DNA of 63,565 nt, counting the filler. It is 5 parts of 5 records of this genome, joined end to end, with 100 filler letters (N's around TTAATTAATTAA, not from the genome) between each part and the next. Parts side by side here need not be neighbours in the genome. Positions count along the whole stretch, not along the records: positions 56,728 to 63,565 come from SRR22947725_2537; 4 more parts are not named here. The stretch is one strand, 5' to 3'. This document shows, in pieces, positions 40,618 through 63,565 of the stretch. Both the position numbers and the translations under genes were made by a program. The notes under the pieces were generated by a model. It did not search any database, had not been told where the DNA came from, and worked only from the letters and a program-made list of their open reading frames with translations. Each line of letters begins with the position of its first letter. The first letter of the stretch is position 1.

Positions 40618-40662
40618 ATTATTAATTTTTTATTTTTATATTTTGAAGAATTATCATTAAAA

Positions 40663-45223: not shown

Positions 45224-45231
45224 TTAGTTTT

Positions 45232-46206: not shown

Positions 46207-46219
46207 TAAAAAAATATTA

Positions 46220-46682
46220 CTACATCTTTTTTTGCAATCCGTCTAGCGCTGTTTGTAATATCCAACTTGCTGCTAAATAGTCTTTTCTAGATTTTCTTTT
46301 TTTCCTTGATAAATCCTGTGTTATCATTGGCCTTTCTACAGCCATTGTGGATAGTCTTTCATCTTGAAGCAAAACTGGCAAGTCAACAACATTCATTAAA
46401 CTTATTGTAAAATCTCTAACAGAATCACACCTTGGACCAATAGTTCCATCCATATTGAGGGGCCAACCCATTACTAAACCTGTTATTTCGTATTGATTAA
46501 AAATTGATATTAGGTGATTGATGTCTGAATTTAACTTATTTCTTTTTATAGTAGAAACTGGAGATGCTATAGTCCAATCAGAATTACTAACAGCAATCCC
46601 TAAGGTCTTTGTTCCAGGATCTATACCTAAAAGTCTTTTTTTGGGCAAAATATTCAACAAAAATTCATCAGGCTTGAAGATA
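46220..46682 (-). CDS. ruvX: YqgF/RuvX nuclease, 5' end at contig edge
   Basis: [35 protein letters not shown]. Confidence 0.92.
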
Positions 46683-46782: not shown

Positions 46783-46837
46783 TTAGAGCGTCGGATTCAT
46801 AACCCGGAGGTCCCGAGTTCAATTCTCGGTCTCGCTA
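46783..46837 (+). tRNA. tRNA with CAT anticodon (probably elongator Met), 5'-truncated
   Basis: TTAGAGC D-arm remnant, anticodon loop TTCATAA (CAT at 46798-46800), T-arm CCGAG-TTCAATT-CTCGG, acceptor 3' strand TCTCGCT-A; CCA not encoded. Confidence 0.9.
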
Positions 46838-46854
46838 CTATTTTTCACTGAAAT

Positions 46855-48228
46855 TTATTTCTTTAATATCTCAACTATTTTCTCAATAGAAAGTATTTGC
46901 TGACTACCATCAGACATTTTTTTCAAACAATAAGAAGAGCTATCTACTTCATTATCATCAACAATAATAACGTAAGGAACTGCAATATTATTTGCGTATT
47001 TCAATTGCTTTTTTAAACTAACGACATCAGGATAAAAGTCAGTGTTAATATTGTTTAATCTCAAGTGATCAACTCCTTTAAGAAGATAATTTAAATGCTT
47101 GTTATTGGTATTTGTAAATAAAACTGTTGCTTTTGTCTTATTTATTTTTGGAAATAAATTTAAAGTATCCATTACTATATAAATTCTATCTAATCCAAAA
47201 CTTACTCCAATACCACTAACATCATTAAGACCAAATACTGAAGTTAAATCATCATATCTTCCACCTGCGGCAATTGATCCAATATTAACTTTATCACTAG
47301 CATTAACTTCGAAAATAGTACCGGTATAATAACTTAAGCCTCTTGCTAAAGAAGTATCAAGAACTAATTTAGTTTTACCCAGGTTCTTTAATGAAATAAG
47401 ATTGTAAATTGAATTTAAATCTTGTACTCCCTCTAAACCAACAATACTTTTTTTAAATAAATTATTTAAAGAACTAATTGAATTAATGAAGTCATCTTTA
47501 ATAGATAGGTAATTAACCAATATAGGTTTTAAAGAAGGATCTAAACCTAATTTTATAAGTTCACTAACTACTTTATCCTTACCAATTTTATCAGTTTTAT
47601 CTAAAATTACAGTCAGTTCAATTAACTTGTTCTCAAGTTTTAAAACTTCACATAGACCAATGAGTATCTTTCTATGGTTAACTCTTATTTTACAATCAGG
47701 GATTTTCAAACTATTAAAAACATCTGAAAATAAATGAATAAAATCAACCTCCTGAAGTAAAGACTTTGATCCTATAACATCTGCATCACATTGCAAAAAC
47801 TCTCTAAATCTTCCTTTTTGAGGTCTGTCTGCCCTCCATACTAATTGAATTTGATATCTCTTAAATGGTAAACTAATTTCATTTTGATTTTGAACAACAT
47901 ACCTTGCGAAAGGAATTGTGAGATCATACCTTAGAGCTTTATCTGAAATAGAGGATGAAATTAAACTAAGATTATCAGAAAGAAGTGTTGAATCATCAAT
48001 ATTTTTTTTAAAATTACCAGATTTTAATATTTTAAAAATAAGTCTATCTCCTTCATCTCCATATTTACCTAATAAAGTTTCAGTATTTTCAAAACTTGGA
48101 GTTTCAATTGGTGAAAATCCAAACTTATTAAAACTGTCTTTTATTGAACTGACAATAAAATCTCTTTTAAAAATTTGAGTTGAGTTAAAGTCTCTTGTTC
48201 CTTTGGATGTTAAGGCTTTCGATTTCAT
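46855..48228 (-). CDS. hisS: Histidine--tRNA ligase
   Basis: KGTRDF, LRYDLTIPFAR, WRADRPQKGRFREF.QCD, LARGLSYYTG, GGRYD. Confidence 0.97.
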   Translation of the reverse strand: MKSKALTSKGTRDFNSTQIFKRDFIVSSIKDSFNKFGFSPIETPSFENTETLLGKYGDEGDRLIFKILKSGNFKKNIDDSTLLSDNLSLISSSISDKALRYDLTIPFARYVVQNQNEISLPFKRYQIQLVWRADRPQKGRFREFLQCDADVIGSKSLLQEVDFIHLFSDVFNSLKIPDCKIRVNHRKILIGLCEVLKLENKLIELTVILDKTDKIGKDKVVSELIKLGLDPSLKPILVNYLSIKDDFINSISSLNNLFKKSIVGLEGVQDLNSIYNLISLKNLGKTKLVLDTSLARGLSYYTGTIFEVNASDKVNIGSIAAGGRYDDLTSVFGLNDVSGIGVSFGLDRIYIVMDTLNLFPKINKTKATVLFTNTNNKHLNYLLKGVDHLRLNNINTDFYPDVVSLKKQLKYANNIAVPYVIIVDDNEVDSSSYCLKKMSDGSQQILSIEKIVEILKK

Positions 48229-48264
48229 TACAGAAATATATACAATTATTAATTAATTTAATAA

Positions 48265-48738
48265 CTAGGCAATAATTAATTCATCAAAATAATTAAATAA
48301 TTCACCCTTGGTAATTATACCGCCTTTTTTTATTAAATCGAATATATCGGCAAGTTTATCATCAGAATAGTTTTTGTTTGAATTATATATTTTAACACTA
48401 TCATCAAATAAATTATCTCTTAACCAAGAGAATCCATCATCAGTTGTGAAATCTACATCAGTATTTTCAGTATAAATTGCAATAAATTTCATTTGAGATT
48501 CACCAAAAGAAAATAAATAAATATGATTTTTTGAAATATTTTCTAAAAATCGTGTTTTACCTAAAACTTTAGTCCAAACAATATCACTAAAAAGATCTAA
48601 TAGTCCTTCAGTTTTTCCGTCATTATTTTGTTTGAGAATATTCCAATCTTCATAAGTAATTGAATTTGAGGATAGAAAATCAATAAATTCTTTATGTAAT
48701 TCAACGAATTGGTCCTTAGTTAATCTAGAATATTTCAT
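48265..48738 (-). CDS. Conserved Bacteroidota protein (DUF6495-like)
   Basis: MKY.RLTK.QF.ELH.EFI.FL, FSDIVW; lies downstream of rplI. Confidence 0.75.
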   Translation of the reverse strand: MKYSRLTKDQFVELHKEFIDFLSSNSITYEDWNILKQNNDGKTEGLLDLFSDIVWTKVLGKTRFLENISKNHIYLFSFGESQMKFIAIYTENTDVDFTTDDGFSWLRDNLFDDSVKIYNSNKNYSDDKLADIFDLIKKGGIITKGELFNYFDELIIA

Positions 48739-48748
48739 AATCTGTAAT

Positions 48749-48779
48749 AAAAAAAAACCCCAAGAAGTATTGAGGTTTT
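48749..48779 (-). terminator. Rho-independent terminator after rplI
   Basis: Minus strand AAAACCTCAA-TACTTC-TTGGGGTTTT followed by a T run. Confidence 0.7.
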
Positions 48780-48799
48780 AAGTTTTAAGATAATAATTA

Positions 48800-49252
48800 T
48801 TATTTACCCTCTGGAATAATTTCAAAAGGAAATTCAACACTAACTTCTCTGTGTAATCGAATGTTAGCAATAAATTTACCTAATTGTTTTATTGACCCAC
48901 CAGGGATAATAATCTGCTTTTTATCAATTTCAAAACCACTAGCTTCTAGAGCCTTTTGAACGTCTATATTATTTATAGATCCAAATAATTTGACTCCTTG
49001 GCCAACTTTAGATTTAATTTTAACTTCTAAAGTTAATAATTTCTTTGATAATTTATTAGCATCATCTATAATTTTTTTCTCCTTAAAAGCTCTTTGTTTT
49101 AAATTTTCTGCAAGTACTTTTTTAGCTGATGATGTAGCTAAAACGGCAGAACCGTTTGGTATTAAAAAGTTTCTACCAAATCCATTTTTGACATTCACTA
49201 AGTCGTCTTTAAAACCGACTCCTTCAACATCTATTTTTAGTATTAGTTCCAT
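48800..49252 (-). CDS. rplI: 50S ribosomal protein L9
   Basis: VKNGFGRNFLIP, KLFGSI, IRLHREV. Confidence 0.97.
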   Translation of the reverse strand: MELILKIDVEGVGFKDDLVNVKNGFGRNFLIPNGSAVLATSSAKKVLAENLKQRAFKEKKIIDDANKLSKKLLTLEVKIKSKVGQGVKLFGSINNIDVQKALEASGFEIDKKQIIIPGGSIKQLGKFIANIRLHREVSVEFPFEIIPEGK

Positions 49253-49265
49253 ATTATAAATATTT

Positions 49266-49562
49266 TTATTTCATTAAATCAGCTACGTAAGGCATAATTG
49301 CTAAATGTCTTGCTCTTTTAACAGCAACAGAAACCTTTCTTTGAAATTTCAAAGAAGTTCCAGTTAATCTTCTAGGTAAAAGTTTACCTTGCTCATTAAC
49401 GAATTTTATTAAAAAATCTGGATCTTTATAGTCAATGTACTTAATACCAGACTTTTTAAATCTACAATATTTTTTTGCTTTGTTTGTATCTATTTGAAGT
49501 GGAGTAAGATATCTAATTTCTCCATCTTTTTTTCCTTTTGCTTGTTGTTCTAATGTAGCCAT
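49266..49562 (-). CDS. rpsR: 30S ribosomal protein S18
   Basis: [21 protein letters not shown]. Confidence 0.98.
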
Positions 49563-49564
49563 AG

Positions 49565-49903
49565 TTATGATTTTACTTTTAATTTTTCTCTTCTTCTTTC
49601 AGCCCAAGATATAGCATGCTTATCCATCTTTACAGTTAAGAAACGCATAAATCTTTCATCTCTTTTAAATTCTGTCTCAAGGGGGTTAACAACAGATCCA
49701 TCTGATTGGTACTCAAACATATGGTAGAAGCCACTTTTTTTGTTTTGAATTGGGTAGGCTAATTTCTTGAGGCCCCAATTTTCAGTAAATATCATCTTTG
49801 CTCCTTTAGAGGTAAGAAAACTTTCGTATTTCTTCACTGTTTCCTTTATCTGATCTTCAGATAAAACGGGATTTAAGATGAAAACAGTTTCATAATGATT
49901 CAT
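49565..49903 (-). CDS. rpsF: 30S ribosomal protein S6
   Basis: [22 protein letters not shown]. Confidence 0.98.
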
Positions 49904-49936
49904 AAAAATTTATTTTTTTTGTTTATTAAACGGGTG

Positions 49937-49944
49937 CGAAAATA
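49937..49944 (-). promoter_or_regulatory. Putative Bacteroidota -7 promoter element for rpsF
   Basis: TATTTTCG(C), a near match to TAnnTTTG, about 33 nt upstream of the ATG. Confidence 0.45.
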
Positions 49945-50045
49945 GTTATTTTATATCATATCTACAATTATTTAAACTTTTATTATTTAATAAAATAGTG
50001 TTTTAAAATCCACTGATATTTATTAATTTTAAAAAAACCCAATAA

Positions 50046-50726
50046 ATGAACTGTATTGTAATTGATGAAAATATTGAAGACTTAAAAAGTCTAGTCACTA
50101 AAATTAATTTATTTCCGAGTTTAAATATGGTTGGACGATTTTCAAATTATATTGATGCAAAACTTCATGTAAATAAGAACCAAGTAGACATAATCATTGT
50201 TGAGATTAGCAAGGATCATGAAAGTTGTTTTAGTTTTTTAGACTCTTTAACAAAAAACATTAAAATTATATTTACTAGTCATGATACCCAATTTGCTTTT
50301 AGAGCATTTAATTACAACTGTATTGATTATCTAAAAAAACCAATATCTGAAGAGAGATTTAAAAAAGCAATAAACAAGCTAAATAATCTAAATCAAAAAA
50401 ATAATGGCAATCATATTTATGTAAAAAGTAAACTAAAAAAGAAAAAAATATACCTAACTAATATTAAATGGATTGAAGCATTAGGTGATTACATAAAGTT
50501 GATTACAAACTCAGGAAATATAGTAATGCTATCATCTTTAAAATCCTTCGAAAAAGAATTACCAAAAGATAAATTTATGAGAATACATAAGTCCTATATT
50601 GTTAATTTGGAGAAAATTGAGACTTATGATAGTAAATATGTATTTATTGATTCAGAAAAAATACCACTTAGTAGAAATAAAAAAATTGAATTAGATTCAG
50701 CCTTAACTTCAAAAAATAATCAATAG
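50046..50726 (+). CDS. LytTR family response regulator with degenerate receiver
   Basis: DYLKKP, WIEALGDYIK, FMRIHKSYIVN; phospho-Asp position reads Glu (IIIVEIS). Confidence 0.9.
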   Translation: MNCIVIDENIEDLKSLVTKINLFPSLNMVGRFSNYIDAKLHVNKNQVDIIIVEISKDHESCFSFLDSLTKNIKIIFTSHDTQFAFRAFNYNCIDYLKKPISEERFKKAINKLNNLNQKNNGNHIYVKSKLKKKKIYLTNIKWIEALGDYIKLITNSGNIVMLSSLKSFEKELPKDKFMRIHKSYIVNLEKIETYDSKYVFIDSEKIPLSRNKKIELDSALTSKNNQ

Positions 50727-53167
50727 CTGTCAACATTTATAATAACCTGAACAGATCTAAATTTTGCTATACTACTTAGTGATTTTTTAGATTTTATTAT
50801 AATATTTTTAGTTTGATTTAAAGATTGGTTTTTTTGAATTTTTATTAATATATTTTTCTGAAATTTATTTCTAACTCTAATTATGTGAGGGAATTCTGGG
50901 CCTAAAATATTTTTTTTAAAAAATTGTCTTAGATATTTACCTAACCAATCTGAAGATTCATTAATTATTGAATAGTCTTTATGCTTAAGAGTTATTTTTA
51001 TCAGTTTACAATTTGGAGGATAATTATACTTAACTCTATCTAAAATCTCTTCTTCAAACATGGAAATATAATCATCATTTATTATATTTTGTAAAATTTT
51101 ATGTTTCGGATTGTAGGTCTGAAGACAAACTTTTCCTCTTTCAGATGACCTACCTGCCCTACCTGAAACTTGCTGAATTAGCTGAAAACTTCTTTCGTAG
51201 GCTCTAAAATCAGGAAAATTTAAAGAATTATCTGCATTTAAAATACCAACTAGCTTCACATTTTTAAAATCTAAACCTTTTGTGATCATCTGAGTTCCAA
51301 TCAGAATATCAATTTTTTGATTTTCAAAATCTGAAATTAACCTTTCGAAACTATTTTTCTTTCTAGTTGTGTCATAATCTAACCTTTTCACTCTATAGTT
51401 TGGAAATAAAGCCTTAACCTCCTCCTCTACCTGTTCAGTACCGAAACCAACGCTAATAATATTATTAGAGTTACAGGATTTACAATTATTAATTAAAGGA
51501 ATACCATAGCCACAATAATGACATTTTAAAGAATTAGTATTTAAATGATAAGTTAAACTTACATCACAATTTATACATGTTGGAGAAGCCCCACAATCCT
51601 CACACTCAACTATTGGAGAAAAACCCCTTCTATTTTGGTATAAAATAACTTGTTTGTGATTACTTACAGTATTAAAAATTTCACTTATTAAGGAATCACT
51701 AAAATGACCATTCATTAATTTTTTAGCATATTTCATTTTCAAATCAATCAACTCAATAACAGGCATTAAAACATTATTATACCTATTTTTAAGTTCAACA
51801 AGATCATACTTGTTTAATACAACTGCATTATTATAAGACTCAACACTAGGAGTTGCAGAACCCAATAAAATATTAGATTTAAAAATTCTTGACAAAACTA
51901 ATGATGCATCTCTAGCATGATATCTAGGAGCAGGCTCTTGCTGTTTATAAGACTGCTCGTGCTCTTCATCGACTATTATTAGTTTAAGGCTCTTAAAAGG
52001 TATAAGTAGTGAAGATCTAGCACCTATTATAAGTTGACAAGATTCATTAGCAGAAATCTTATTCCAAACTTCAACCCTTTGATTTATAGAATAACCAGAA
52101 TGATAAACCAACACTTTATCTCCGAAAAAATTAGCTAATCTTTTTACAACCTGTGTGGTCAATGCAATTTCAGGGACCAAATAAAGAACTTGATTTTTAT
52201 TAATTAATGCCTTTTGAATTAATTTAATATAGACTTCAGTCTTACCAGAAGATGTAACTCCGTGAAACAAAACTGGATTATTCTTTTTAAAAGACAATAG
52301 AATTTTTTCAAAAGCCTTTTCTTGACTCTGACTTAAATTGTTAATTGGAGATGTATTTGATGGTAAATTGTTAAAACGATTAATTTCAACAAAATGTTCT
52401 TTCAAAATTTTCTTATCAATCAATTGTTTGATTATACTTGAACTAACATCTAATTTCTTTTTTAAATCTTCAACTGAAATAGACTCTTTTAAATTTAATT
52501 TTACAAGATTTAAATACAAAGACAATTGTTTAGGTGATCGCTTTAGTTTTACTTTAATTTCAGAAACAGAAAAAGTGCCCTTATTTAAAGAATTAATTTC
52601 TACAAATCTTTTTAATTTTGGTTTGTACTTAGAATATAGCTTTTCATCAATTTGTATAATCTGTTTATCGTTTAAAGATTGTATGATTTTAAATACATTT
52701 TTTTTATTTAAAATTTCAGATATTTCATGAATTGACAATTCTAGTCCCTTTAATAAAGCTTCATAAATTAAAAATTCATCATCACTTAACTCATTGTGAT
52801 TAAATTCTGTTTTTTTATTTAAACTAATTATAGTTTCACTCTCTATAAGTAAAACTGATGGAATGGAAGCTTTCATCACCTCGCCAATGCCACACATGTA
52901 ATAATTAGACATCCAATCCCAAAAACTTAATTGATTTTGATTAACGATAGGAGTTTCGTCAATAATCTGATGAATAGGTTTGACATCATAAGATAACGGC
53001 CTCTGATTATGTAAACTAGAGACGATTCCAGTAATAATTCTACTTTTACCAAACGGAACAGACACTCTAGATCCTGGTTTAATAAAATCAAATTCACTTT
53101 CTGTAATTTCGTAGCAAAATAGCTGGTCAATAGGGATTGGTAATATAACGTCTACGTAAAAGTTCAT
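50720..53167 (-). CDS. priA: Primosomal protein N'
   Basis: GVTSSGKTEVY, VPEIALT, DEEHE.SYKQ, CxxC Zn motifs, QVSGRAGR. Confidence 0.97.
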   Translation of the reverse strand: MNFYVDVILPIPIDQLFCYEITESEFDFIKPGSRVSVPFGKSRIITGIVSSLHNQRPLSYDVKPIHQIIDETPIVNQNQLSFWDWMSNYYMCGIGEVMKASIPSVLLIESETIISLNKKTEFNHNELSDDEFLIYEALLKGLELSIHEISEILNKKNVFKIIQSLNDKQIIQIDEKLYSKYKPKLKRFVEINSLNKGTFSVSEIKVKLKRSPKQLSLYLNLVKLNLKESISVEDLKKKLDVSSSIIKQLIDKKILKEHFVEINRFNNLPSNTSPINNLSQSQEKAFEKILLSFKKNNPVLFHGVTSSGKTEVYIKLIQKALINKNQVLYLVPEIALTTQVVKRLANFFGDKVLVYHSGYSINQRVEVWNKISANESCQLIIGARSSLLIPFKSLKLIIVDEEHEQSYKQQEPAPRYHARDASLVLSRIFKSNILLGSATPSVESYNNAVVLNKYDLVELKNRYNNVLMPVIELIDLKMKYAKKLMNGHFSDSLISEIFNTVSNHKQVILYQNRRGFSPIVECEDCGASPTCINCDVSLTYHLNTNSLKCHYCGYGIPLINNCKSCNSNNIISVGFGTEQVEEEVKALFPNYRVKRLDYDTTRKKNSFERLISDFENQKIDILIGTQMITKGLDFKNVKLVGILNADNSLNFPDFRAYERSFQLIQQVSGRAGRSSERGKVCLQTYNPKHKILQNIINDDYISMFEEEILDRVKYNYPPNCKLIKITLKHKDYSIINESSDWLGKYLRQFFKKNILGPEFPHIIRVRNKFQKNILIKIQKNQSLNQTKNIIIKSKKSLSSIAKFRSVQVIINVDSY

Positions 53168-53218
53168 TTTAAATACTTAAAATAACATTGATTTATCTAC
53201 AGTTTTTATTAAAATATT

Positions 53219-53226
53219 TAAATTTG
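53219..53226 (+). promoter_or_regulatory. Putative Bacteroidota -7 promoter element upstream of rlmH
   Basis: TAAATTTG matches TAnnTTTG. Confidence 0.4.
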
Positions 53227-53316
53227 TATCAAGAAATATCACTAAGAATTTATCAAAGAAAACATACAATACACTAAAAAATAATATATTTATAAAAATA
53301 CAATTAAATTTTATTA

Positions 53317-53784
53317 ATGAACATAAAACTAGTAGTTATTGGAGAGACAAATAATAAGAATTTAAAAGCACTTACAGACCAGTATATTAATAAACTAAAA
53401 CACTACATTACATTTGACTTAATTATTATTAAGGATCAAAAAAAAAAATTACCAGAAAGTATTCAAATTAAAAAAGAAGGAGAAAAAATATTATCCATTT
53501 TAAAAAAAAATGAATTTATCATACTACTAGATGAAAATGGGGAACACAAATCATCTGTTGGATTTTCTAAGTTCATACAAAAGAAATTAAATTCGGGAAT
53601 GAAAAATATCACTTTCATAGTAGGTGGACCCTATGGTTTTTCAAGTGAAATAAAATCTATATCAAATTATCAATTATCATTATCTAAAATGACATTTTCT
53701 CATGAGATGATTAGACTGTTTTTTACAGAACAACTCTATAGAGCTTTTAGTATTCTTAAGAATGAACCTTATCATCACCAATAA
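53317..53784 (+). CDS. rlmH: 23S rRNA (pseudouridine-1915-N3)-methyltransferase
   Basis: LLDENG, GGPYGFS, SLSKMTFSHEMIRL..EQLYRA, PYHH. Confidence 0.96.
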   Translation: MNIKLVVIGETNNKNLKALTDQYINKLKHYITFDLIIIKDQKKKLPESIQIKKEGEKILSILKKNEFIILLDENGEHKSSVGFSKFIQKKLNSGMKNITFIVGGPYGFSSEIKSISNYQLSLSKMTFSHEMIRLFFTEQLYRAFSILKNEPYHHQ

Positions 53785-53786
53785 TT

Positions 53787-54362
53787 ATGAAACTAATTTT
53801 CGCTACTAACAACGACGACAAAATAATTGAAGTCCAAGCATTACTAAATAAAAAATTTGAAATACAAAGTTTAAAGGACATCAATTGCTTTGATGAAATA
53901 GTTGAAAACAAAAATACTATTGAAGGAAATGCTATACTAAAAGCTGAATATATACATGAAAAATTTAAAGTTGATTGTTTTGCTGATGATACTGGTCTTG
54001 AAGTTGAGTCACTTGATGGTTTGCCTGGGGTGATGTCAAAAAGATTTTCAGGATTAGATTATAGCGCTGAAAAAAACATTAGTAAACTCTTAATTATGAT
54101 GAAGTCTGCATCAAATAGAAAAGCCAGATTCAAGACTGTAATAGCACTAATTTTAAATGGTGAATTATCAGTCTTTACTGGTATTTGTGAAGGGGAAATA
54201 GTTTTTACTAAAAAAGGATCAAAAGGATTTGGATATGACCCAATTTTTAAACCCATAGGTCATGAATTTACTTTTGCAGAAATGGATATGGAGATGAAAA
54301 ACACAATTGGTCACAGAGCAAAAGCTATGAATAAATTAATAGAATTTCTTAGCAAAAAATAA
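53787..54362 (+). CDS. rdgB: Non-canonical purine NTP pyrophosphatase (Ham1)
   Basis: FATNN..K, ADDTGLEV, GFGYDPIF, HRAKA. Confidence 0.95.
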   Translation: MKLIFATNNDDKIIEVQALLNKKFEIQSLKDINCFDEIVENKNTIEGNAILKAEYIHEKFKVDCFADDTGLEVESLDGLPGVMSKRFSGLDYSAEKNISKLLIMMKSASNRKARFKTVIALILNGELSVFTGICEGEIVFTKKGSKGFGYDPIFKPIGHEFTFAEMDMEMKNTIGHRAKAMNKLIEFLSKK

Positions 54363-54379
54363 TATCCATTAATTAACAC

Positions 54380-54387
54380 TATATTTG
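54380..54387 (+). promoter_or_regulatory. Bacteroidota -7 promoter element for the DEAD-box gene
   Basis: TATATTTG(CAC), exact TAnnTTTG, about 110 nt upstream of the ATG. Confidence 0.6.
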
Positions 54388-54495
54388 CACCTTTAAATCC
54401 TTAATCGATAAGGTAGTGTTTCAGAGGTCTCAGTTTAAGTATGTCGATAACAACTTCGTTAACACATTATATAAATCGAATATTTAAACAAAATT

Positions 54496-56418
54496 ATGAG
54501 TGAATTCAAAAAAATTGGATTAGAAGAAAATTTATTACTTGCTGTTGAAAAAATGGGGTTTGAAGCTCCTAGTGAAGTTCAAAGTAAAACAGTCCCTGTT
54601 CTTTTAGAAAAAGATACAGACTTAGTAGCCTTAGCTCAAACTGGAACTGGTAAAACAGCTGCATTTGGATTTCCAATGATCCAAAAAATTGATATCAACA
54701 GTAAAAAAACTCAAGGACTTATTTTATCGCCTACCAGAGAATTGTGTTTACAAATCACTAATGAATTAAAGCAATATGGGCAGTTTTATAAAGGATTGAA
54801 CATAACAGCTATTTATGGTGGTGCAAGTATAACTGACCAAGCTAGGTCAGTAAAGAAAGGAAGCCAAATAATTGTTGCTACACCAGGTAGAATGAAAGAT
54901 ATGATAAACAGAAATCTGGTGAATATTTCTGAAATAAAATACAGTGTTTTAGATGAAGCTGACGAAATGTTAAACATGGGTTTCTATGAAGACATTACTG
55001 ATATTCTCTCTTTTACCCCAAAAGAAAAAAACACATGGCTATTTTCTGCAACTATGCCTAAAGAAGTTTCTAATATTGCTAGAAAATTTATGAGTAGTCC
55101 TGTTGAAATCACTGTGGGTACTAAAAATGTTGGTAGCGATCAAGTATCTCATGAATATTACTTAGTTAATTCAAGAGATAGATATGCTGCTCTCAAAAGA
55201 TTAGTTGACGCTAACCCTCAGATATTTTCTGTAGTGTTTTGTCGAACTAAAAGAGATACTCAAAAAGTAGCAGAAAAACTTATTGAAGATGGTTACAACG
55301 CTGGGGCATTACATGGTGATTTAAGTCAAAGTCAAAGAGATTTAGTAATGAAGTCTTTTAGGAACAAACAAATACAATTTTTAGTAGCTACAGATGTAGC
55401 TGCGAGAGGAATCGACGTAGACAATATTACTCACGTGATTAATTATCAATTACCTGACGAAATTGAAACATACACACACAGAAGTGGTAGAACTGGTAGA
55501 GCAGGAAAAACAGGAATATCTCTTGTTATTGTATCTAAAAGTGAGATAAGGAAAATTGGACATATTCAAAAGAAAATAAAAAAAGAATTTATAAAGAAAG
55601 AGATACCTAGCAGTGAAGAAATATGTAAAATTCAACTTTTCGCTTTAGCTAATAAGGTAAATAAAACTGAAGTAAATAATAATATTGATGAATATATTGA
55701 GGAAATTAATAATTTATTCAAAAAGACTAAAAAGGCTGATCTAATCAAAAAGTTCTTTTCAGTTGAATTCAATAGATACTTTGACTACTACCAAAAATCT
55801 AAAAATTTAAATGTTGAGGGTGGGAATCAACACAGTTACTCCGATTTTTCAGATTCTGAAGAATCTAGCTCAGCAAGATATTTTATTAATATTGGTCAAA
55901 AAGATGGCTACGATTGGATGAGTCTTAAGGATTTTCTTAAGGATGTTCTTGAACTTGGAAAAGACGACGTGTTTAAAGTTGATGTGAAAGAAAGTTTTTC
56001 TTTTTTTAATACTGAAGAAGTTCACAAAGAAAAGATACTTGCATTTTTTACTGATTTTAAAGAAAACGGTCGATTTGTAAATGTTGAAATTTCTAAGGAT
56101 ATAAAAGGTAACCGCGGTAAAGGAAGATCAAATAGAGGAGATAGACGTGGTGGAAATAGAGGGTTTAAAAAATCTAATTCAAGAAGATCTGATTCAAGAA
56201 GATCTGATTCAAGAAATTCAGATAGAAGTTTTAAAAAAAGAAGTAGCTCTAATGATTCAGACAGAGGATCGAGAAGGTCTAATTCTAAAGAATCGGACAG
56301 AGGAAGTGATACTAAAAGATCTGGCTCCAGAGAGTCTGAAAATAACTCAAGTTCTAGAAGATCAAAATCATTTAATGCGGATAGCTTTTCTAGACCTAGG
56401 AGAAGTAGAAGAAAATAA
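54496..56418 (+). CDS. DEAD-box RNA helicase (DeaD/CshA-like) with DbpA-like RBD and RS-rich tail
   Basis: AQTGTGKT, PTREL, DEAD, SAT, ARGID, HRSGRTGRAG. Confidence 0.95.
   Translation: MSEFKKIGLEENLLLAVEKMGFEAPSEVQSKTVPVLLEKDTDLVALAQTGTGKTAAFGFPMIQKIDINSKKTQGLILSPTRELCLQITNELKQYGQFYKGLNITAIYGGASITDQARSVKKGSQIIVATPGRMKDMINRNLVNISEIKYSVLDEADEMLNMGFYEDITDILSFTPKEKNTWLFSATMPKEVSNIARKFMSSPVEITVGTKNVGSDQVSHEYYLVNSRDRYAALKRLVDANPQIFSVVFCRTKRDTQKVAEKLIEDGYNAGALHGDLSQSQRDLVMKSFRNKQIQFLVATDVAARGIDVDNITHVINYQLPDEIETYTHRSGRTGRAGKTGISLVIVSKSEIRKIGHIQKKIKKEFIKKEIPSSEEICKIQLFALANKVNKTEVNNNIDEYIEEINNLFKKTKKADLIKKFFSVEFNRYFDYYQKSKNLNVEGGNQHSYSDFSDSEESSSARYFINIGQKDGYDWMSLKDFLKDVLELGKDDVFKVDVKESFSFFNTEEVHKEKILAFFTDFKENGRFVNVEISKDIKGNRGKGRSNRGDRRGGNRGFKKSNSRRSDSRRSDSRNSDRSFKKRSSSNDSDRGSRRSNSKESDRGSDTKRSGSRESENNSSSRRSKSFNADSFSRPRRSRRK
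56178..56215 (+). repeat. 15-bp coding tandem repeat, about 2.5 copies
   Basis: TTCAAGAAGATCTGA x2 plus a partial copy, encoding SRRSD repeats. Confidence 0.8.
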
Positions 56419-56492
56419 TATATGTTAAATCATAGTTAAGGTGGTGATATTAGATATAAATAATTAGTTAAGTTTATTATATTTATTACTAA

Positions 56493-56627
56493 ATGATTAA
56501 AAGAAGATTATTTAATTTCCTATTTATTTTAACCAGTTTTTGTTTTTCTCAAGAAATAACTACTGTAAAGGGTGCTATTATTAACGCCAATAATAACACT
56601 CCTTTAGAAAATGTTAATATTGTTAAC
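56493..56627 (+). CDS. Secreted carboxypeptidase-regulatory-like domain protein, truncated
   Basis: Signal peptide ending FSQ, then VKG.II......PLENVNIVN. Confidence 0.7.
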
Positions 56628-56727: not shown

Positions 56728-56930
56728 TCCTCCAACGCCGCCTGCGGGCGCTGGAGGCGGGTGCTGGAGGCGTTGTGTTGGTGGATGGTGGATGGTGGAT
56801 GGTGGTTTGGTGGTTTGGTGGTTTGGTCGGGCGGGTGGTGGTGGGGTTGCTGGGATTTCCTGGTGGTTCCTCTGCCTGGACGTCTTGGTTCGAGTGTGTG
56901 GCTCACGTGTTGGTGTCTGTGTGCGTGTAG
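56728..56930 (+). other. Probable spliceosomal intron 3' portion (donor not identified)
   Basis: GT-rich low complexity with TGGTGGA x3 and TGGTGGTT x3, branch-like CTCAC near 56902, acceptor TAG at 56928-56930. Confidence 0.65.
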
Positions 56931-59900
56931 GTCTGAGGTGGATGCGTCGCGAGCGGAGAAGCTTCGGCAGGAGATTGGGTTCACGGAGCATACGTGGCCG
57001 TTGGAGAAGGTGTACGAGTATTACGGCGGTTCCCCAGAGGGTGGGCTGAGTTCTGCGCAGGTGCTGCAGAATAGGTACGTGGCTGCCTGTGTTGTATCGG
57101 TCGTATCGGTTGTATCGGTTGTATTGTTCGTTTTGGTTGGAGTCCACGGCGTCTCATGGTGTGGTCGTCTTGGTTGCCGCTGCAGAGAAAAGTATGGCTG
57201 GAACCGTCTGACGCCGCCGGTGCTTGTGCCGTGGTGGATCAAGTACCTGATGTGCTATGCGGACGTGTTCATGCTGCTGTTGCTGTTCGGAGGTGTGCTG
57301 TGTTTCGTGGCGTACGGTATTGATCAGTCTGACCCCACGAATCTCTACCTGGGTGTGGTCCTGATCATGGTGGTGGTCATCTCGGCGACGTTTGGGTATC
57401 TGACAGAGTCGAGGGCGTCTTCGGTTATGGAGGGATTCAAGAAGCTTGTTCCGAAGAAGACCAAGGTGCTTCGTGATGGGAACATTAGCATCATCGATGC
57501 GGAGGAGCTGGTGCCGGGAGATGTGGTGGATTTCAGTGATGGGGACCAGGTGCCGGCCGATCTCCGTGTGGCGACTGCCAATGATGTCAAGGTGGACAAC
57601 TCGTCTCTGACGGGAGAGCCCGAGCCGCAGGAGCGGTACCCGGATCTGCAGATTGGTTCGAATGGCAAGCCGGTGACGGTGCCGCTCGAGGCGCAGAACC
57701 TCATGTTCTACACGACCATCATCGTGGCCGGGTCGGGGCGTGGTATTGTGATTGGTACTGGAGATAGGACGGTTATGGGGCAGATTGCCGGGCTTGCTTC
57801 GGAGTCTTCGAACGATGAGGCCACGCAGTTCCAGAAGGAGGTGGACGTTTTTATCAAGATCATCTCGGTGATTGCCATATTGATCGGCGTGGTGTTCATT
57901 CTGATCGGAATTTTTGTGGCCGGGGCTGATGCGATTGCCATGGTGGTGTTCGCCATCGGTATCATCGTCGGTACGGTGCCAGAGGGTCTTCTGCTGACGC
58001 TCACGGTGTCGTTGGCGCTCTCGGCAAAGCACATGTACTCGAAGAACGTGCTGGTGAAGGGCATGCCGAGTGTGGAGAACCTGGGTTCGACGACCGTGAT
58101 TGCTTCGGATAAGACGGGAACGCTGACGCAGAACCGGATGACCGTGCAGCACGCGTGGTACGATGGTCAGCTGGTGACGGTCCCCGCCGCCAGGAACCAG
58201 CCGCAGCTCAAGGCTGCGATGCGCCCTGGTGTGATCAAGGGTCCCAAGTACGATGTCAACTCTCCCTCTTGGCAGGCGTTGCAGCGAGTTGCGACGCTTT
58301 GCAACAACTCGAGGTTCGTGCTGACGGATGCGGACGACGAGGACAGGCCTCCGCTCAACCTCAAGGAGGAGGTCGAGACGCCCGACTTCAACCTGCTCGG
58401 ACTGCAGTGCACTGGAGACGCGTCAGAGAGTGCGCTGATCAAGTGCGTGCAGCTTCTCCGGGACGTCGAGGAGTATCACAAAGCCAACCCCAAGCTCCAC
58501 GAGATTAAGTTCAACTCGACAAACAAGTGGCAGCTGTCCATCCACAAGCCGGAGGATCCGTCCGCGAAGAACCCTTTCATGGTATTTAAGGGCGCCCCGG
58601 AGCGCGTCATCAACCGATGCACGAAGATTCTCATCGATGGTGAGGCGGTACCGCTCACGGACGAGTGGAGGAAGAAGTACCAGGACGCGTACGAGAGCCT
58701 CGGTGCGATGGGAGAGCGCGTGCTCGGGTTCGCGATGCGCAACCTCGAGAACATCCCGATGGACTATGCCTTCACGAATAAGCCAGAGCCAAACTTCCCC
58801 ACGGACAATCTCACCTTTGTGGGACTGATTTCCCTCATCGATCCTCCAAGGGAGGGTGTGCCCGAGGCCGTGGCCAAGTGCAAGCGGGCCCGCATCAAGG
58901 TGTATATGGTCACCGGAGACCATCCAATCACCGCGCTTGCCATCTCCAAGCAGGTGGGTATCATCGATCAGGATATGTGGGACGCTGGCAGGGCCATCGT
59001 CGTCAAGGGAGACGACATCAGGGACTGGATGGAGATCGAGGATCCGGAGGAGCGGCAGGCCAAGTGGGACTGGGCCCTCGACCATGAGCAGATTGTGTTT
59101 GCTCGCGTGTCGCCCGCTCATAAGCTGCTCATCGTCGAGAACTGCCAGCGCCGCGGCGAGAACGTGGCGGTGACCGGGGATGGTGTCAACGATGCCCCGG
59201 CCCTCAAGAAGGCCAACACTGGTATCGCCATGGGTATCTCCGGCAAGGACGTGTCAAAGGAGGCAGCCGATATGATTCTCATGGACGATAATTTTGCTTC
59301 CATCGTCAATGGTATCGAGGAGGGCAGGGTGATCTTCGACAACCTGAAGAAATCCATTGCCTACACCCTCGCCTCCAAGTTCCCGGAGCAGATCCCGTTC
59401 CTCCTGTTCGTGGTCATCAGCTTCCCGGCCGCCATCTCCACCATTTTGATCCTGTCGATTGACCTGGGATGCGACATGCTGCCCGCCATCTCGCTCGCCT
59501 ACGAGCCCAAGGAGGCCGACATCATGGACCGCCCGCCCAGGAATCCGGACGTGGAGCGCCTTGTCTCGAGGAGGCTCATCTCATTCTCGTACTTCCAAAT
59601 CGGTCTGATTCAGACCTGTGCCGGATTCCTTGCGTTCATGACCGTATTCAACGATTACGGGTATCAGTGGGGCAACATGATTGGCCGCGGCATCACGTGG
59701 GAGACGGGCCCTCTCTGGTGCAGGCCGCAGGTCGGCGGCACGGGTCTTTGGGCGGCAGACTGTGAATTTGGCTGCGCCGAGCCGCAGGACACGTATAACG
59801 GGATCCCCACCCTGTACAGCCAAGCGACGGACGAGAACAAGTTCTGCAAGTACGGGTGCCCGACTCCGTTCAACGGAACTGCCGACCCGTTTGTCGAGTC

Positions 59901-60633
59901 CACCCAGTACGGATTCAGGGGATGGCACGAGAACGTCTTCGGTGGCGACAAGGATAAAGCCACGGAGGCCGTGTGCGGCCGGACGTGCGCGTGGTGGAAC
60001 GGCCTGGGCACGGACCTCAAGGCGGAGTTCTTTGCAGCCAATGACGAGTATGTGCGCAGGTTGAACGCCGGGGTTGTCGACTTCGACAACCCCTTCAACT
60101 ACGAAGGCAGCGAATACGCCCTGTACCTGTCCAGAGAAGAGGATGGGCTCTTTGGAGAGTATTGCTCCCAGCCCAACGCTGACCAGTACGGGTTCCCGGG
60201 ACGTGAGATGCTCAACGAGGGCGAGCGGGCCCGTCAGGGATCCTACTACTGGTGGAACGGCCAGGTCCAATTCTTCCCCAACCTGGAATCGCAGAAGAAC
60301 GTCCTGTACACTGGGCAGACGGCATACTTTGCGGCAGTTGTCATCGCCCGCACGGCCGATCTGCTGATCTGCAAAACCAGGAAGGAAAGCCTCTTCACCC
60401 AGGGACTGCGAAACAGGATCCTGAATGCCGGGTTCTGCACCATGATCCTGTTCGTATGCCTGGTCTCGTACGTCCCACCTTTCAGGATTGTATGGACCAC
60501 CAGACCCCTCTACGTTCTGTACATGTTCATAGGCGTGCCGTATGCCATGTTCATCTTCGTCTACGACGAGATTCGCAAGATGATCATCCGCGCCTACCCC
60601 AGAGGATGGGTGTTCAGGAACACCTACTGGTAG
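56931..60633 (+). CDS. Type IIC P-type ATPase (Na+/K+-ATPase alpha-like); exons 56931-57074 and 57186-60633, 5' end missing
   Basis: NRLTPP, VDNSSLTGE, VPEGL, SDKTGTLTQNRMTV, FNSTNK, KGAPER, MVTGDHP, TGDGVNDAPALKKA, IDLG.DM.PAISLAYE, ICKTR, C-terminal TYW. Confidence 0.95.
57075..57185 (+). other. 111-bp GT-AG intron, in frame and stop-free
   Basis: AG|GTACGT donor, GTATCGGT(C/T) x3, CTCAT branch-like motif, TGCAG| acceptor; splicing restores QNREKYGWNRLTPP. Confidence 0.85.
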
Positions 60634-60708
60634 ACACATAAACCCATTACAACGCATTAACTAGCATGTTACCCAATCACATCACCATGTCCATCCCATC
60701 ACGGGTCG

Positions 60709-60918
60709 CTACGAGTACATTCTCAGCATACGCCGGACGTGCCGCTGGAGCAGAGACCGCTCCGCCTGCTGGACGTTGGCTGCCAACCGCCCTCTTGACC
60801 TTGCTATGACCGCCTTCAGCTTCTGGTTCGGCTGGACGTGTGGTGCTACATTGTTTGGGGGAGACTGTGCGAGGAACCGCCGCAGCAACTTGACGATGGG
60901 CCGCTGTTTTGCCGTCAT
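60709..60918 (-). CDS. Possible small basic protein, 69 aa; gene model uncertain
   Basis: MTAKQRPIVKLLRRFLAQ...; minus-strand TGTAA at 60646-60650 downstream; competing frames exist. Confidence 0.3.
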   Translation of the reverse strand: MTAKQRPIVKLLRRFLAQSPPNNVAPHVQPNQKLKAVIARSRGRLAANVQQAERSLLQRHVRRMLRMYS

Positions 60919-61172
60919 TGCATTCGAAGACCGACGGACGGGAACAAATCCGCGACAACCCACGTTTCCCGGCTCGGCGGCGACGGTATCCCGTGCGAAG
61001 ATTTTGAGATTCCGGAAGAGTGCTTCGAGCGCCGGGAATGCCGGGAAAGACTCAGAAAACCGTTTGCCTCGCTCGGCGTGCTCAAGGGTCCCCTTCCCAT
61101 CCGCTTCCACCGACTCGAGGACGAGGTCCTTGGCGCCCAGACACCAAGTCGCAGATCATTCCAACACCGAAA

Positions 61173-61961
61173 ATGAAGTTTGGATCGAGGTCCAAGTCCA
61201 AGTCCAAGTCGAGCGCGTCGCCGGCGGCCGGCCCTCCCCCGGCGCCCGCTGGCCGGTCACCTGCCTCGTCGACCTCCTCGTTCATCTCCGTCGGCGTCCT
61301 CATGGATCAGCGCGAGCGGCCACGTGGCGTGACCGTTGAAGAAGTGGACGATCTGGATTGCGCTTATGAAGCCATGTCGCTGGACGGTGGACGAGAAGAG
61401 GGGCTCATGAACCCGTCCCACGACGAGCTCTTCGAAGCCTACACCGGGTACATGGAGGTGATCCAGGCGTCCGTCGCAAGTCGAAGCAAACCCCAGAGGC
61501 TTGGAAGACCCCCGGCAGCCAGATATGCCAGGCCGGGCGCTGCCATGCGGCCGCACGAGGCCAGGGCGCCTGCGCTGCCAGCCACGAATCCATACATCCG
61601 CTCCATGCACGACGTCATGGACAAGAAGCGTGGCAGCCGCTCCGTGGAAGGCAGCGGCGCCGGCAAGGGGAAGGGGAAGGGGAAGGGGAAGGCGTCGAGT
61701 GCCATCAAGGCCACCGGCGTCACCCGACGGCTTATGGAGGAGGTGGCGGTCGCCAGGGAGAACATGCACCTGTTCAACCGCCTGATCTCCGTCCTGCCGT
61801 CATCCGACGTCGCCCGTCGCCGTCTCCTGAAGGATTTCTACAAGAGTCGAGAGCTTCTGGATAAGATCTCGCGATTCCCACAGGTTCCAGCGCCGGAAGA
61901 GAACCGGCGGGACGGCAAGCCCGCCTGGGACGAGAACTGGGTCGGGTGCATGGTGGTCTAG
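61173..61961 (+). CDS. Hypothetical eukaryotic protein, 262 aa, low-complexity
   Basis: First ATG at 61173; SK and GK hexamer repeats; GC3-rich codons. Confidence 0.65.
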   Translation: MKFGSRSKSKSKSSASPAAGPPPAPAGRSPASSTSSFISVGVLMDQRERPRGVTVEEVDDLDCAYEAMSLDGGREEGLMNPSHDELFEAYTGYMEVIQASVASRSKPQRLGRPPAARYARPGAAMRPHEARAPALPATNPYIRSMHDVMDKKRGSRSVEGSGAGKGKGKGKGKASSAIKATGVTRRLMEEVAVARENMHLFNRLISVLPSSDVARRRLLKDFYKSRELLDKISRFPQVPAPEENRRDGKPAWDENWVGCMVV

Positions 61962-61996
61962 ATGAATTACAAGCAGGTAAAACCGTTCCCGTCTGC

Positions 61997-62173
61997 CTAG
62001 CGCGTAGACGAGCTGACGCGCTCTTCCACCCCGGCCATCAACGCATCAAACTCCTTCTTCCTGCCCTTTGTCCTAGCCACGCTGGTCATGCCAAGCGTCA
62101 CCACCGTCGCCCCGGACAGCAGCAAAAACATGCCCATCGCCATGCGGTCGCCCATCTTGAACATCCCGCTCAT
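61997..62173 (-). CDS. 58-aa single-TM small protein (not in ORF track)
   Basis: MSGMFKMGDRMAMGMFLLLSGATVVTLGMTSVARTKGRKKEFDALMAGVEERVSSSTR; TGTAA about 25 nt after the stop. Confidence 0.6.
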   Translation of the reverse strand: MSGMFKMGDRMAMGMFLLLSGATVVTLGMTSVARTKGRKKEFDALMAGVEERVSSSTR

Positions 62174-62204
62174 TTATTCCGAGTCTGTCGTCGCACGTGA
62201 CCAA

Positions 62205-62558
62205 TCAAAACACACGGGCAGCCAGCGATAGCACCTTGAGCATGTTCCGACTCCGCAACTCGTGCGTGACAAACCCCAGCACCCTGGTCCCGATCGGCAG
62301 CCCCTTGCTGTTCACCAGAACGCACGAGTTCTTGTCAAACTTGATCACCGACCCGTCTGCCCGCTGAATCTCCTTCTTCGTTTCCACGACGACCGCCTTG
62401 ACGACCTGGCCCTGCTCGACTTTTCCCTTGCTCGCCTTCTTCACCGAGCACGTGATGATATCCCCGATGCTCGCGACCTTGCCTTTCGTCTTGATACACT
62501 CGACCTCTTTCGCGCCACTGTTGTCGGAGACGTGCAGTCGGCTGCCGGCGATGAGCAT
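62205..62558 (-). CDS. rpl14: Ribosomal protein uL14, nucleus-encoded mitochondrial type
   Basis: V.DNSGAK, IGDII..SVK, KAVVV, R.DGS.IKFD.N, GTRV.G.V.HELR; first ATG at 62558. Confidence 0.9.
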   Translation of the reverse strand: MLIAGSRLHVSDNSGAKEVECIKTKGKVASIGDIITCSVKKASKGKVEQGQVVKAVVVETKKEIQRADGSVIKFDKNSCVLVNSKGLPIGTRVLGFVTHELRSRNMLKVLSLAARVF

Positions 62559-62692
62559 AATTCGAGCCAAAGGTTGCGCGCCGTTGTTTCTTTCCTGCCG
62601 CCGCGATTCCCGTACGACCCGGCGGACCGATCGTCAGTATCGTTGGTTAAATGCGTCGGGACGTAGATCAATTGACTGTGAAATTCTTGGCG

Positions 62693-63526
62693 TCATAGGT
62701 TCGTCCATGGGTCTGCGTACCCGCCCTCCACACAGCGCAGGTACTGGACAAAGTGGCCGAGGGCGTACTGGGTCAGTCTATTGTGTACGATTTCCTCGTT
62801 GTCTGGGTCGTTTGCGTGCGGTATGAACGCGTCCGGCGGGTGAACATCCAGGTCGGCGCCCGGGGCCGAGTAGAGCTGCTTCAGGTTGTCGAGGATCGTC
62901 CTGCGGATTCCCAACAGTTCCTCCTTCGTGTTCAAATCCTGGAACCTTGCCGGAGGGTTGTACCGGAGACTATTATCCGGGCCAAAAAAGTCCCGAAATT
63001 TGCTCTCGGGCAATTCGTTGTCCGGGTCCTCGTCGACGATGGCCGCCGTGCCAAGCGTCCAGGCCCTTGCCACGTTGGTCTTTGTGTAGCCGCCGCCTCC
63101 AAGCACCAGCATCGGCACGTTGAAGGACTTGACGAATTCAACGGCGGCCGCGTGGCCCTGCACCGTCATGTTGAACGTACCGAGCCTGTCGCCGACGAGC
63201 CCATCGGCGCCACACTGGAGGCAGATGGCGCTCGGCTTGAACACATCCATGATGCGCTCGAGTATCGGCTTGAACATGAACATGAAGTCATCGTCCGTGC
63301 ATCCCTCCACCAGGGGGACGTTGACGGAGTAGCCCCGTCCCTGCCCCTCGCCAATCTCCGCCAGGCTCCCCGTCCCCGGGAAGAACCACTCTGGTCGGTA
63401 TAGGTGTGTGGATAACGTCATCACCCTGTCCGTGCAATAGAACGCCTCCTCCACGCCATCACCGTGATGGATATCGATATCTATGTACAACACCCGCGCG
63501 TGGTATTTGAGCATCTCCAGGACGGC
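62693..63526 (-). CDS. Class I (RPD3-type) histone deacetylase, last exon
   Basis: RVLYIDIDIHHGDGVEEAF, FFPGTG, VNVPL, QCGAD, GGGGYT; exon begins AVLEMLK after a CAG acceptor. Confidence 0.93.
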   Translation of the reverse strand, partial: AVLEMLKYHARVLYIDIDIHHGDGVEEAFYCTDRVMTLSTHLYRPEWFFPGTGSLAEIGEGQGRGYSVNVPLVEGCTDDDFMFMFKPILERIMDVFKPSAICLQCGADGLVGDRLGTFNMTVQGHAAAVEFVKSFNVPMLVLGGGGYTKTNVARAWTLGTAAIVDEDPDNELPESKFRDFFGPDNSLRYNPPARFQDLNTKEELLGIRRTILDNLKQLYSAPGADLDVHPPDAFIPHANDPDNEEIVHNRLTQYALGHFVQYLRCVEGGYADPWTNL

Positions 63527-63565
63527 CTGAGGGGACGGTATTGGTGGTGGTGGGTGAGAGGACGA
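63527..63565 (-). other. Intron 3' end of the HDAC gene
   Basis: Minus-strand CTCAC branch-like motif and CCCCTCAG acceptor. Confidence 0.75.

Follow-up and report, generated by a model that had tools for sequence, protein, structure and literature searches.

A Green-Algal Na,K-ATPase-Like Pump with Basic Residues at Two Ion-Site Positions: a Possible Sodium Pump of Reduced Stoichiometry

The subject of this report is a Na,K-ATPase-like pump gene of a green alga, found on the plus strand at positions 56,931 to 60,633 of a 63,565-nucleotide stretch of joined contigs (the window, meaning that whole stretch); the contig that carries it, SRR22947725_2537, occupies positions 56,728 to 63,565. The 3:2 stoichiometry and the Na+ selectivity of the Na,K-ATPase have so far been probed with engineered mutants and one natural oddity, the alpha2KK isoform of the brine shrimp Artemia franciscana (8k1l). 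Lys758 of alpha2KK is taken here to occupy the position of N776 in pig alpha1, in line with the abstract of PMC10756188. That paper places this lysine in the ion cavity, where it replaces one Na+ and one K+ and gives a measured stoichiometry of 2Na:1K. All site III residues of alpha2KK are intact, and the lysine at the 776 position is held to keep the pump selective for Na+; in Xenopus alpha1, N785K alone shifts the affinities for both Na+ and K+ (PMC10756188).

A second set of described systems concerns site III, the Na+-only site. PMC9463140 names Q923 and D926 as residues that bind Na+ directly in this site and describes Trp924, acting via E954 and Y771, as required to form it. In the H,K-ATPases, an arginine of membrane segment 8 (M8) at the C930 position forms a salt bridge with the equivalent of D926 and blocks Na+ binding; Arg949 of the nongastric pump makes the same salt bridge (PMC9463140). 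The substitution C930R turns the Na,K-ATPase into an electroneutral pump with a reported stoichiometry of 2Na:2K (PMC10812997; Holm 2017 as cited there and in PMC9463140).

Among algae, the pumps OtNAK1 of Ostreococcus and CrNAK1 of Chlamydomonas (Pedersen et al. 2012, PMC3355532; PMC11252407) belong to the same green-algal clade as the pump described here and share its long loop between M7 and M8. Both are treated in the literature as pumps with conserved Na+ sites, which holds for the canonical pumps (class A below); OtNAK1 is taken as one of these by its description alone. The pump HANA of Heterosigma akashiwo is also an algal Na,K-ATPase-like enzyme but comes from a stramenopile, and it is likened here by description, not by sequence. 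Shono et al. reportedly described HANA in 2001 as carrying a large insertion where M7 and M8 are joined. Green-algal type IIC (P2C) pumps, their M7-M8 insert, the M5 lysines of animal isoforms, and the M8 arginine of the H,K-ATPases are already known.

Judged from its sequence, the predicted gene product is a type IIC P-type ATPase alpha-like protein, a Na,K-ATPase-like pump, as the initial annotation had proposed. The protein reaches 1006.4 bits with the NCBIfam model TIGR01106 (Na,H/K antiporter P-type ATPase subunit alpha), above the curated cutoff of 946.1 despite the missing N terminus, and every other specific subfamily model scores below its own cutoff. The Pfam set is of the P2 type (E1-E2_ATPase, Cation_ATPase, Hydrolase, and Cation_ATPase_C). 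The catalytic motifs DKTGT, TGDGVND, and, in M4, PEGL are present, and TGES is replaced by TGEP. The closest solved chains are Na,K-ATPase alpha subunits (E value of 2.4e-260), followed by the H,K-ATPases and then alpha2KK; identity to animal alpha subunits amounts to 48 to 52% in the listed searches. The closest named protein, with 86% identity over 1135 residues, comes from Picochlorum sp. BPE23, and Picochlorum is a trebouxiophyte.

The ion pocket departs from the canonical Na,K-ATPase, with N324, N776, Q923, W924, and E954 reading T, K, R, T, and M. Residues were mapped with phmmer against human alpha3 (8d3u), to which M4, M5, M6, M8, and M9 align without gaps; the BLASTP alignment is ungapped as well. 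Human alpha3 numbers are three lower than those of pig alpha1, whose numbering is applied throughout. The pump sequence (P0001) is the 1132-residue translation of window positions 57235-60633, and its residue 715 is K776, opposite N773 of alpha3. The motifs and segments of the pump are as follows.

57610..57621, plus strand: dephosphorylation motif of the A domain, TGEP in place of TGES (motif reading)
57967..57990, plus strand: M4 motif VGTVPEGL with A323G and N324T (57973-57975), E327 kept (alignment)
58108..58122, plus strand: phosphorylation motif DKTGT (motif reading)
59362..59391, plus strand: M5 motif YTLASKFPEQ with T774A, N776K (AAG, 59377-59379), I777F, and I780Q, S775 and E779 kept
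59458..59478, plus strand: M6 motif IDLGCDM with T807C, D804 and D808 kept (alignment)
59668..60318, plus strand: M7-M8 exoplasmic loop (P0301), 217 residues with 8 invariant cysteines
60337..60363, plus strand: M8 motif VVIARTADL with Q923R (CGC, 60349-60351) and W924T, D926 kept, and C930 kept just downstream
60430..60450, plus strand: M9 motif GFCTMIL with E953T and E954M (60439-60444) (alignment)
60616..60633, plus strand: C terminus RNTYW and stop codon

Altogether, the pocket shows the changes A323G, N324T, T774A, N776K, T807C, Q923R, W924T, E953T, and E954M and retains E327, Y771, S775, E779, D804, D808, Q854, D926, C930, and R933. The initial annotation had quoted the M4, M5, M6, M8, M9, and C-terminal motifs, all of which are found in one open frame. 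The range it gave, 59360..60633, holds for M5 to the C terminus and leaves out the M4 motif VGTVPEGL, which lies at 57967-57990. Its codon positions, 59377 (AAG) for N776K and 60349 (CGC) for Q923R, are exact, and the calls it had made by eye (N324T, N776K, Q923R, and E953T/E954M, with E327, E779, D804, D808, and D926 kept) are all upheld by phmmer against human alpha3. A misalignment at positions 776 and 923 is ruled out by the agreement of three aligners and the ungapped segments.

A sequencing error at the two basic codons is rejected, as independent DNA and RNA assemblies carry both; the initial annotation had listed read-level errors there among the possible refutations. A DNA contig (X1 record 4) and an RNA contig (X15 record 21) span the lysine codon, and three contigs span the arginine one, of DNA (X1 record 8) and of RNA (X16 record 31 and X14 record 15). 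None of the covering assemblies reports alternative letters at either codon. The M5, M8, and M9 motifs recur in 13 of 15 members listed from the cluster at 90% identity (34 members); the remaining two are fragments.

The two basic residues belong to a whole clade of green-algal pumps. The first alignment contains the window pump and the 120 best matches to its C-terminal 433 residues, 121 in all, and was enlarged with 148 cluster representatives to 269 sequences. Within the initial set of 121, the long-loop pumps of green algae (M7-M8 loop) divide into four classes, A to D; 15 rows are excluded from the class counts, namely animal or fused models, other lineages, and a truncated class-B-like fragment, P0056. 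Class A (60 rows from Ostreobium, Bryopsis, Flabellia, Pseudoscourfieldia, a pedinophyte, and Prasinocladus) is canonical, with N324 in 56/56 rows and N776, Q923, W924, D926, and E954 in 60/60 each. Class B (24 rows) unites the window pump with Picochlorum, Micractinium, and Parachlorella. All of its rows carry K776, R923, D926, and T774A (24/24 each) and keep S775 and C930 (24/24); position 324 is T in 20/22 and C in 2/22, and W924 and E954 survive in only 7/24 and 6/24. Class C (12 rows from Chlamydomonas, Volvox, Gonium, and Edaphochlamys) shows K776 and K923 in 12/12 each, no D926 (0/12) and no W924 (0/12), and E954 in 10/12. Thus, K776 with a basic residue at 923 is found in all 36 rows of classes B and C, that is, in the Trebouxiophyceae and Chlorophyceae, and S775 is kept in 36/36; E327, D804, and D808 are invariant throughout classes A, B, and C. 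Class D (10 rows from Klebsormidium, Closterium, and Mesotaenium: P0091, P0096, P0099, P0100, P0103-P0105, P0107, P0109, and P0112) has N776 and mostly Q923, with T772A, S775V, D804C, and D926N in 10/10 each. This remodeled pocket of the streptophyte-algal pumps suggests yet another ion specificity.

An unbiased scan of 1132 positions asked for residues fixed to at least 95% in class A, replaced by another residue in at least 90% of class B, and different in class C. Only eleven positions pass, and the nonconservative exchanges among them fall at 776 (N to K), 923 (Q to R or K), 780 (I to Q or L), and one exchange of Pro for Ala. This marks the two basic residues as the defining changes of the lineage formed by classes B and C. 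In a FastTree phylogeny of 91 rows, all long-loop green-algal pumps form one clade with a support of 100, and classes B, C, and D each reach 100. The clade of B and C is supported by 99 in this tree and by 100 in a short IQ-TREE search with 37 rows; the trait columns, a few of over 1100, were retained in both trees. P0003 and Picochlorum BPE23 (P0007) group with the window pump inside class B, and this Picochlorum-like subgroup has gone furthest in the loss of W924 and E954. The trees indicate a single origin of K776 with a basic residue at 923, predating the split between the pumps of Trebouxiophyceae and those of Chlorophyceae and separate from animals.

The convergent origin that the initial annotation had suggested is therefore borne out: the M5 lysine is independent of the brine shrimp one, and the green-algal pumps form their own clade in the trees. 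Its background on alpha2KK and on the H,K-ATPase lysine agrees with PMC10756188. The parallel that it drew to alpha2KK stands for the lysine at 776 and fails at 324, where the algal pump has a threonine in place of the second Artemia lysine. The two pumps are alike in being type IIC enzymes with a lysine at the N776 position of the ion cavity and with E327, E779, D804, and D808 kept. They differ in site III, which is intact in alpha2KK and altered by Q923R, W924T, and E954M in the algal pump; alpha2KK is, moreover, an animal paralogue that needs a beta subunit, and the algal lysine is of separate origin. The H,K-ATPases and the C930R mutant (PMC9463140; PMC10812997) share with the algal pump an M8 arginine near D926. 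Site III Na+ binding is abolished in them, and the H,K-ATPases lack the Trp924 equivalent, hold a tethered cation in the region of sites I and II, and carry out electroneutral transport of low stoichiometry. They differ from the algal pump in the placement of the charges, with Arg at 930 (i+4 from D926) and Lys at 775 against Arg at 923 (i-3) and Lys at 776, and in that they are animal enzymes that have a beta subunit. The algal pump retains both S775 and C930.

Outside the green algae, K776 turns up again at no fewer than three to four other points of the tree. The unrelated protists with basic residues at these pocket positions (P0160, P0237, P0124, and P0196) are Sphaerothecum destruens, which combines K776 with R923, a second independent pairing; Nonionella stella, which shows K776; and Dictyostelium discoideum (the Q55FW3 cluster) and Clastostelium, in which R923 occurs alone.

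The Chlamydomonas member of class C connects this clade with published work. P0088, a Chlamydomonas protein of 1112 residues, shows N324V, N776K, Q923K, and D926A with three aligners and appears to be the sole such pump of Chlamydomonas. It resembles the window pump in K776 and a basic residue at 923 and differs from it, as a class C pump, in having K at 923, in the loss of D926, and in keeping E954. Pedersen et al. stated in 2012 that the Na+-coordinating residues of CrNAK1 are all conserved and that it is hence a Na+ pump (PMC3355532). If P0088 is CrNAK1, this statement is contradicted by its aligned residues, and the Na+-ligand statement on CrNAK1 in the literature on plant P-type ATPases would need correction. 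The published statement, together with the identity to animal alpha subunits given above, speaks for an ordinary 3Na+:2K+ pump in which the lysine and arginine side chains would face elsewhere or be compensated, the substitutions being neutral lineage markers. Such a pump is highly improbable. The residues of P0088 contradict the claim of conservation, the site III ligands Q923 and D926 and the site-forming W924 and E954 are all changed or decaying in the clade, and a lysine introduced as N785K alters Na+ and K+ affinities by itself in Xenopus alpha1 (PMC10756188).

The pattern of residues is real, conserved, and expressed, and a mechanism built on it is plausible. Arg923 would replace a Na+ ligand of site III. 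Since it lies one helical turn from D926, it is placed to neutralize this aspartate, much like the M8 arginine of the H,K-ATPases or C930R. The hydrogen bond network between W924 and E954 that shapes site III appears to have decayed, so that site III would no longer bind Na+. Site III decay is seen only in the clade with the basic residues, with the carboxylates of the shared sites fixed, as expected if site III has ceased to be an ion site. Lys776 would lie in the shared cavity of sites I and II, as in alpha2KK, and would replace one Na+ and one K+. A loss of site III together with one shared site can reasonably be inferred. With both removed, one Na+ and one K+ (or H+) would be moved per cycle, which would make transport electroneutral. 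We therefore favor, as an evenly balanced judgment, a plasma-membrane-type Na+ pump of a Picochlorum-like marine trebouxiophyte from an old clade with two tethered cations, exporting Na+ at a reduced stoichiometry, with the exchange of one internal Na+ for one external K+ (or H+) as the likeliest ratio. An electroneutral 1:1 exchange could hold steep gradients at any membrane potential.

Several points weigh against this proposal. The arginine sits at 923, whereas the tested arginine is at 930, and the second Artemia lysine, at 324, is missing. Young et al. argue that destruction of site III makes a pump nonselective between Na+ and H+ (PMC9463140); specificity for Na+ is therefore not assured. 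P0088 is taken to be CrNAK1 by species, name, and equal length (1112 residues). Mutants of Chlamydomonas NAK1 are NaCl sensitive (PMC11252407), an in vivo observation on class C that speaks for the proposal, but this sensitivity is also expected from poor K+ uptake. Finally, the marine green algae Ostreobium, Bryopsis, and Pseudoscourfieldia have canonical pumps with N776 and Q923, so the K/R state is not needed for life in seawater.

The special adaptation of a marine alga that the initial annotation had envisaged is not upheld, the K/R state being ancestral in a clade that includes freshwater and soil algae. Micractinium conductrix is a freshwater alga (PMC7911474), and Chlamydomonas reinhardtii is a soil or freshwater alga (PMC3355532, PMC11252407); the clade with K776 and a basic residue at 923 also takes in Volvox, Gonium, Edaphochlamys, and Parachlorella. 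The pattern shared with freshwater algae weakens the marine reading. M5-lysine isoforms of fish and Daphnia likewise accompany low salinity (Artigas et al., PMC10756188).

The lysine in M5 also bears on another mode of transport. A lysine or arginine in transmembrane segment 5 acts as a built-in counterion in KdpB as well as in pumps of the P1B-2, P3A, and P4A types (PMC10654040), and in the pocket of the algal pump just E327, E779, D804, and D808 remain to offset two fixed positive charges. Both observations fit a K+-independent, electrogenic Na+-ATPase, a uniporter with one Na+ exported per cycle. The green alga Dunaliella maritima is reported to have a vanadate-sensitive Na+-ATPase that carries no K+ and works as an electrogenic uniporter; its gene was never identified (PMC8708325). 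A uniporter is nevertheless unlikely for the pump described here, as the same lysine in alpha2KK still permits the transport of one K+ (PMC10756188), the K+-ligand residues S775, E327, E779, D804, and D808 are all retained, and Chlamydomonas NAK1 is described as responsive to low K+. The Dunaliella workers found no ATPase structurally classed as Na+ transporting (PMC8708325), which leaves the link to that alga circumstantial.

The state of site III could, alternatively, point to an H+/K+ or mixed H+,Na+/K+ exchanger serving mainly K+ uptake, convergent with the animal H,K-ATPases. Young et al. conclude that destruction of site III yields a nonselective pump and that a tethered cation at site I is a further requirement for strict selectivity toward H+ (PMC9463140); both kinds of change are present in the window pump. 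NAK1 is induced along with the HAK K+ transporters, and the clade is centered on genera whose cited members are freshwater or soil algae. The lysine, however, stands at 776 and not at 775. As described in PMC10756188, a lysine at 776 keeps selectivity for cytosolic Na+, and the neighboring one is needed for H+. S775 is kept throughout classes B and C, D804 has not turned into glutamate, and the NAK1 mutants were identified as NaCl sensitive (PMC11252407). An exchanger of this kind thus seems a rather poor prospect.

The reading as a Na+ pump of reduced stoichiometry can be extended, more tentatively, to the whole clade. It is possible, though doubtful, that all Na,K-ATPase-like pumps of Trebouxiophyceae and Chlorophyceae, including the only such pump of Chlamydomonas, are natural electroneutral 1Na+:1K+ pumps that work without a beta subunit and combine the brine shrimp device of an M5 lysine with the H,K-ATPase device of an M8 arginine. 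On the same tentative footing, the clade could hold the sought genes of the atypical K+-independent or H+-exchanging Na+-ATPases of green microalgae.

The clade offers a second and much older natural experiment beside alpha2KK: across it, a lysine has become fixed in the shared sites and a basic residue in the site that binds only Na+, and the remainder of the latter site has since decayed. It is directly testable because Chlamydomonas NAK1 is included and salt-sensitive mutants exist. The question bears on proposals to use algal sodium pumps in crops for salt tolerance. If the proposed stoichiometry is true, an electroneutral 1:1 pump would behave very differently from a 3:2 pump in a hyperpolarized plant membrane. 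No published report of clade-wide K776 with a basic residue at 923 and site III decay was found in a search that left subscription literature largely outside. The word "lysine" is absent from the main texts of PMC7911474, PMC3355532, and PMC9609216, although the residues may be shown, uncommented, in Figure S1b of the first and in Figure 8 of the second of these papers. The word "alga" occurs in PMC10756188 only for shrimp feed and is absent from PMC9463140. No paper on a Picochlorum P-type ATPase is among the literature matches listed.

The M7-M8 loop of the algal pump counts 217 residues, compared to 34 to 40 in animal-type rows. This loop and an intron had been overlooked in the initial annotation, whose motifs all stood. 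The eight cysteines of the loop do not vary across 61 green-algal sequences, which represent all four classes. The M7-M8 insert of algal pumps is known and has been proposed, without experiments, as a substitute for the beta subunit, and green algae have evolved no beta subunit (PMC7911474, citing Pedersen 2012 for the insert). The long, disulfide-rich loop probably fills the role of the missing subunit. A search of the loop against Pfam gives no family at E values up to 10, and a search against solved chains gives a single chance-level match (8imn, CpcN; E value of 0.38) and no beta-subunit chain. The high similarity of the loop to the animal beta subunit claimed in PMC7911474 is thus unsupported at the sequence level. 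A profile hidden Markov model of the green-algal loop matches 3 of 162 other sequences, all from Closterium or P0106, and detects no long loops in red algae or other lineages. The T-Y-W ending is common to most green-algal rows. The A-domain motif, read in the 22 class B rows that cover it, is TGES in 13, TGEP in 5, and TGEA in 4.

A single frame is open from the contig start through the stop codon at 60631-60633. The gene is divided as follows.

56931..57074, plus strand: exon 2, cytoplasmic N-terminal part of the pump, AG acceptor at 56929-56930
57075..57185, plus strand: in-frame GT..AG intron of 111 nucleotides, skipped by RNA contigs
57186..60633, plus strand: exon 3, remainder of the type IIC P-type ATPase alpha-like protein including the stop codon (open frame, Pfam, TIGR01106)

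The frame of exon 2 is without an in-frame ATG, and the start of the relatives lies further upstream. The X15 RNA contig has a loose end of 186 letters ahead of 56929 that is absent from the window. Together with the AG acceptor, these foreign RNA letters indicate an exon 1 with the start codon beyond the contig start (56728); the window copy is missing just a short N-terminal piece. RNA contigs from runs X15 and X16, which belong to different studies, skip the 111 bases of the intron, whereas the DNA run X1 retains them, and the intronless relatives P0003, P0004, and P0005 are continuous across the junction. The pump gene is spliced and expressed as mRNA. The intron 57075-57185 holds a 9-bp tandem repeat of 3.8 copies, and its length is not constant from one near-identical environmental copy to another. 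In public collections, gene calls of the prokaryotic style translate it as protein.

The pump stretch is present in 19 of 22 listed runs from 16 studies, mostly of seawater, estuary, and marine metagenomes, with six runs recorded as RNA; these are assembled contigs and not raw reads, which show presence and splicing rather than expression level and would hide rare variants. Metatranscriptomes of marine and estuarine origin supply RNA contigs that cover most of the gene.

Five contigs, separated by N spacers, make up the window (1-24063, 24164-34427, 34528-46682, 46783-56627, and 56728-63565). Contigs 1 to 4 have a guanine-plus-cytosine (GC) content of 25 to 45%, and the last one reaches 60%. 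Long open reading frames sampled by position on contigs 1, 2, 4, and 5 include bacterial housekeeping genes for LepA, UvrC, an ABC-F protein, topoisomerase I, PriA, and two helicases, one of the DEAD-box and one of the DEAD/DbpA type. Beside the pump gene, the last contig also holds part of a histone deacetylase gene and the gene of an L14 ribosomal protein. A bacterial origin of the pump gene is ruled out by its spliced GT..AG intron, these two neighbors, and the GC content of 60%. The contig 56728-63565 is green algal amid an otherwise bacterial assembly of four contigs, into which it looks to have been misbinned. A tRNA scan found none.

Two further open frames were noted beside these genes. 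On the algal contig, window positions 61011-61961 (plus strand) form an open frame of 316 codons without a Pfam match, with an AAGGGG tandem repeat at 61665-61692. Window positions 54496-56415 (plus strand) encode a bacterial DEAD/DbpA-type RNA helicase with a long C-terminal tail of low complexity, rich in Arg, Ser, and Asp.

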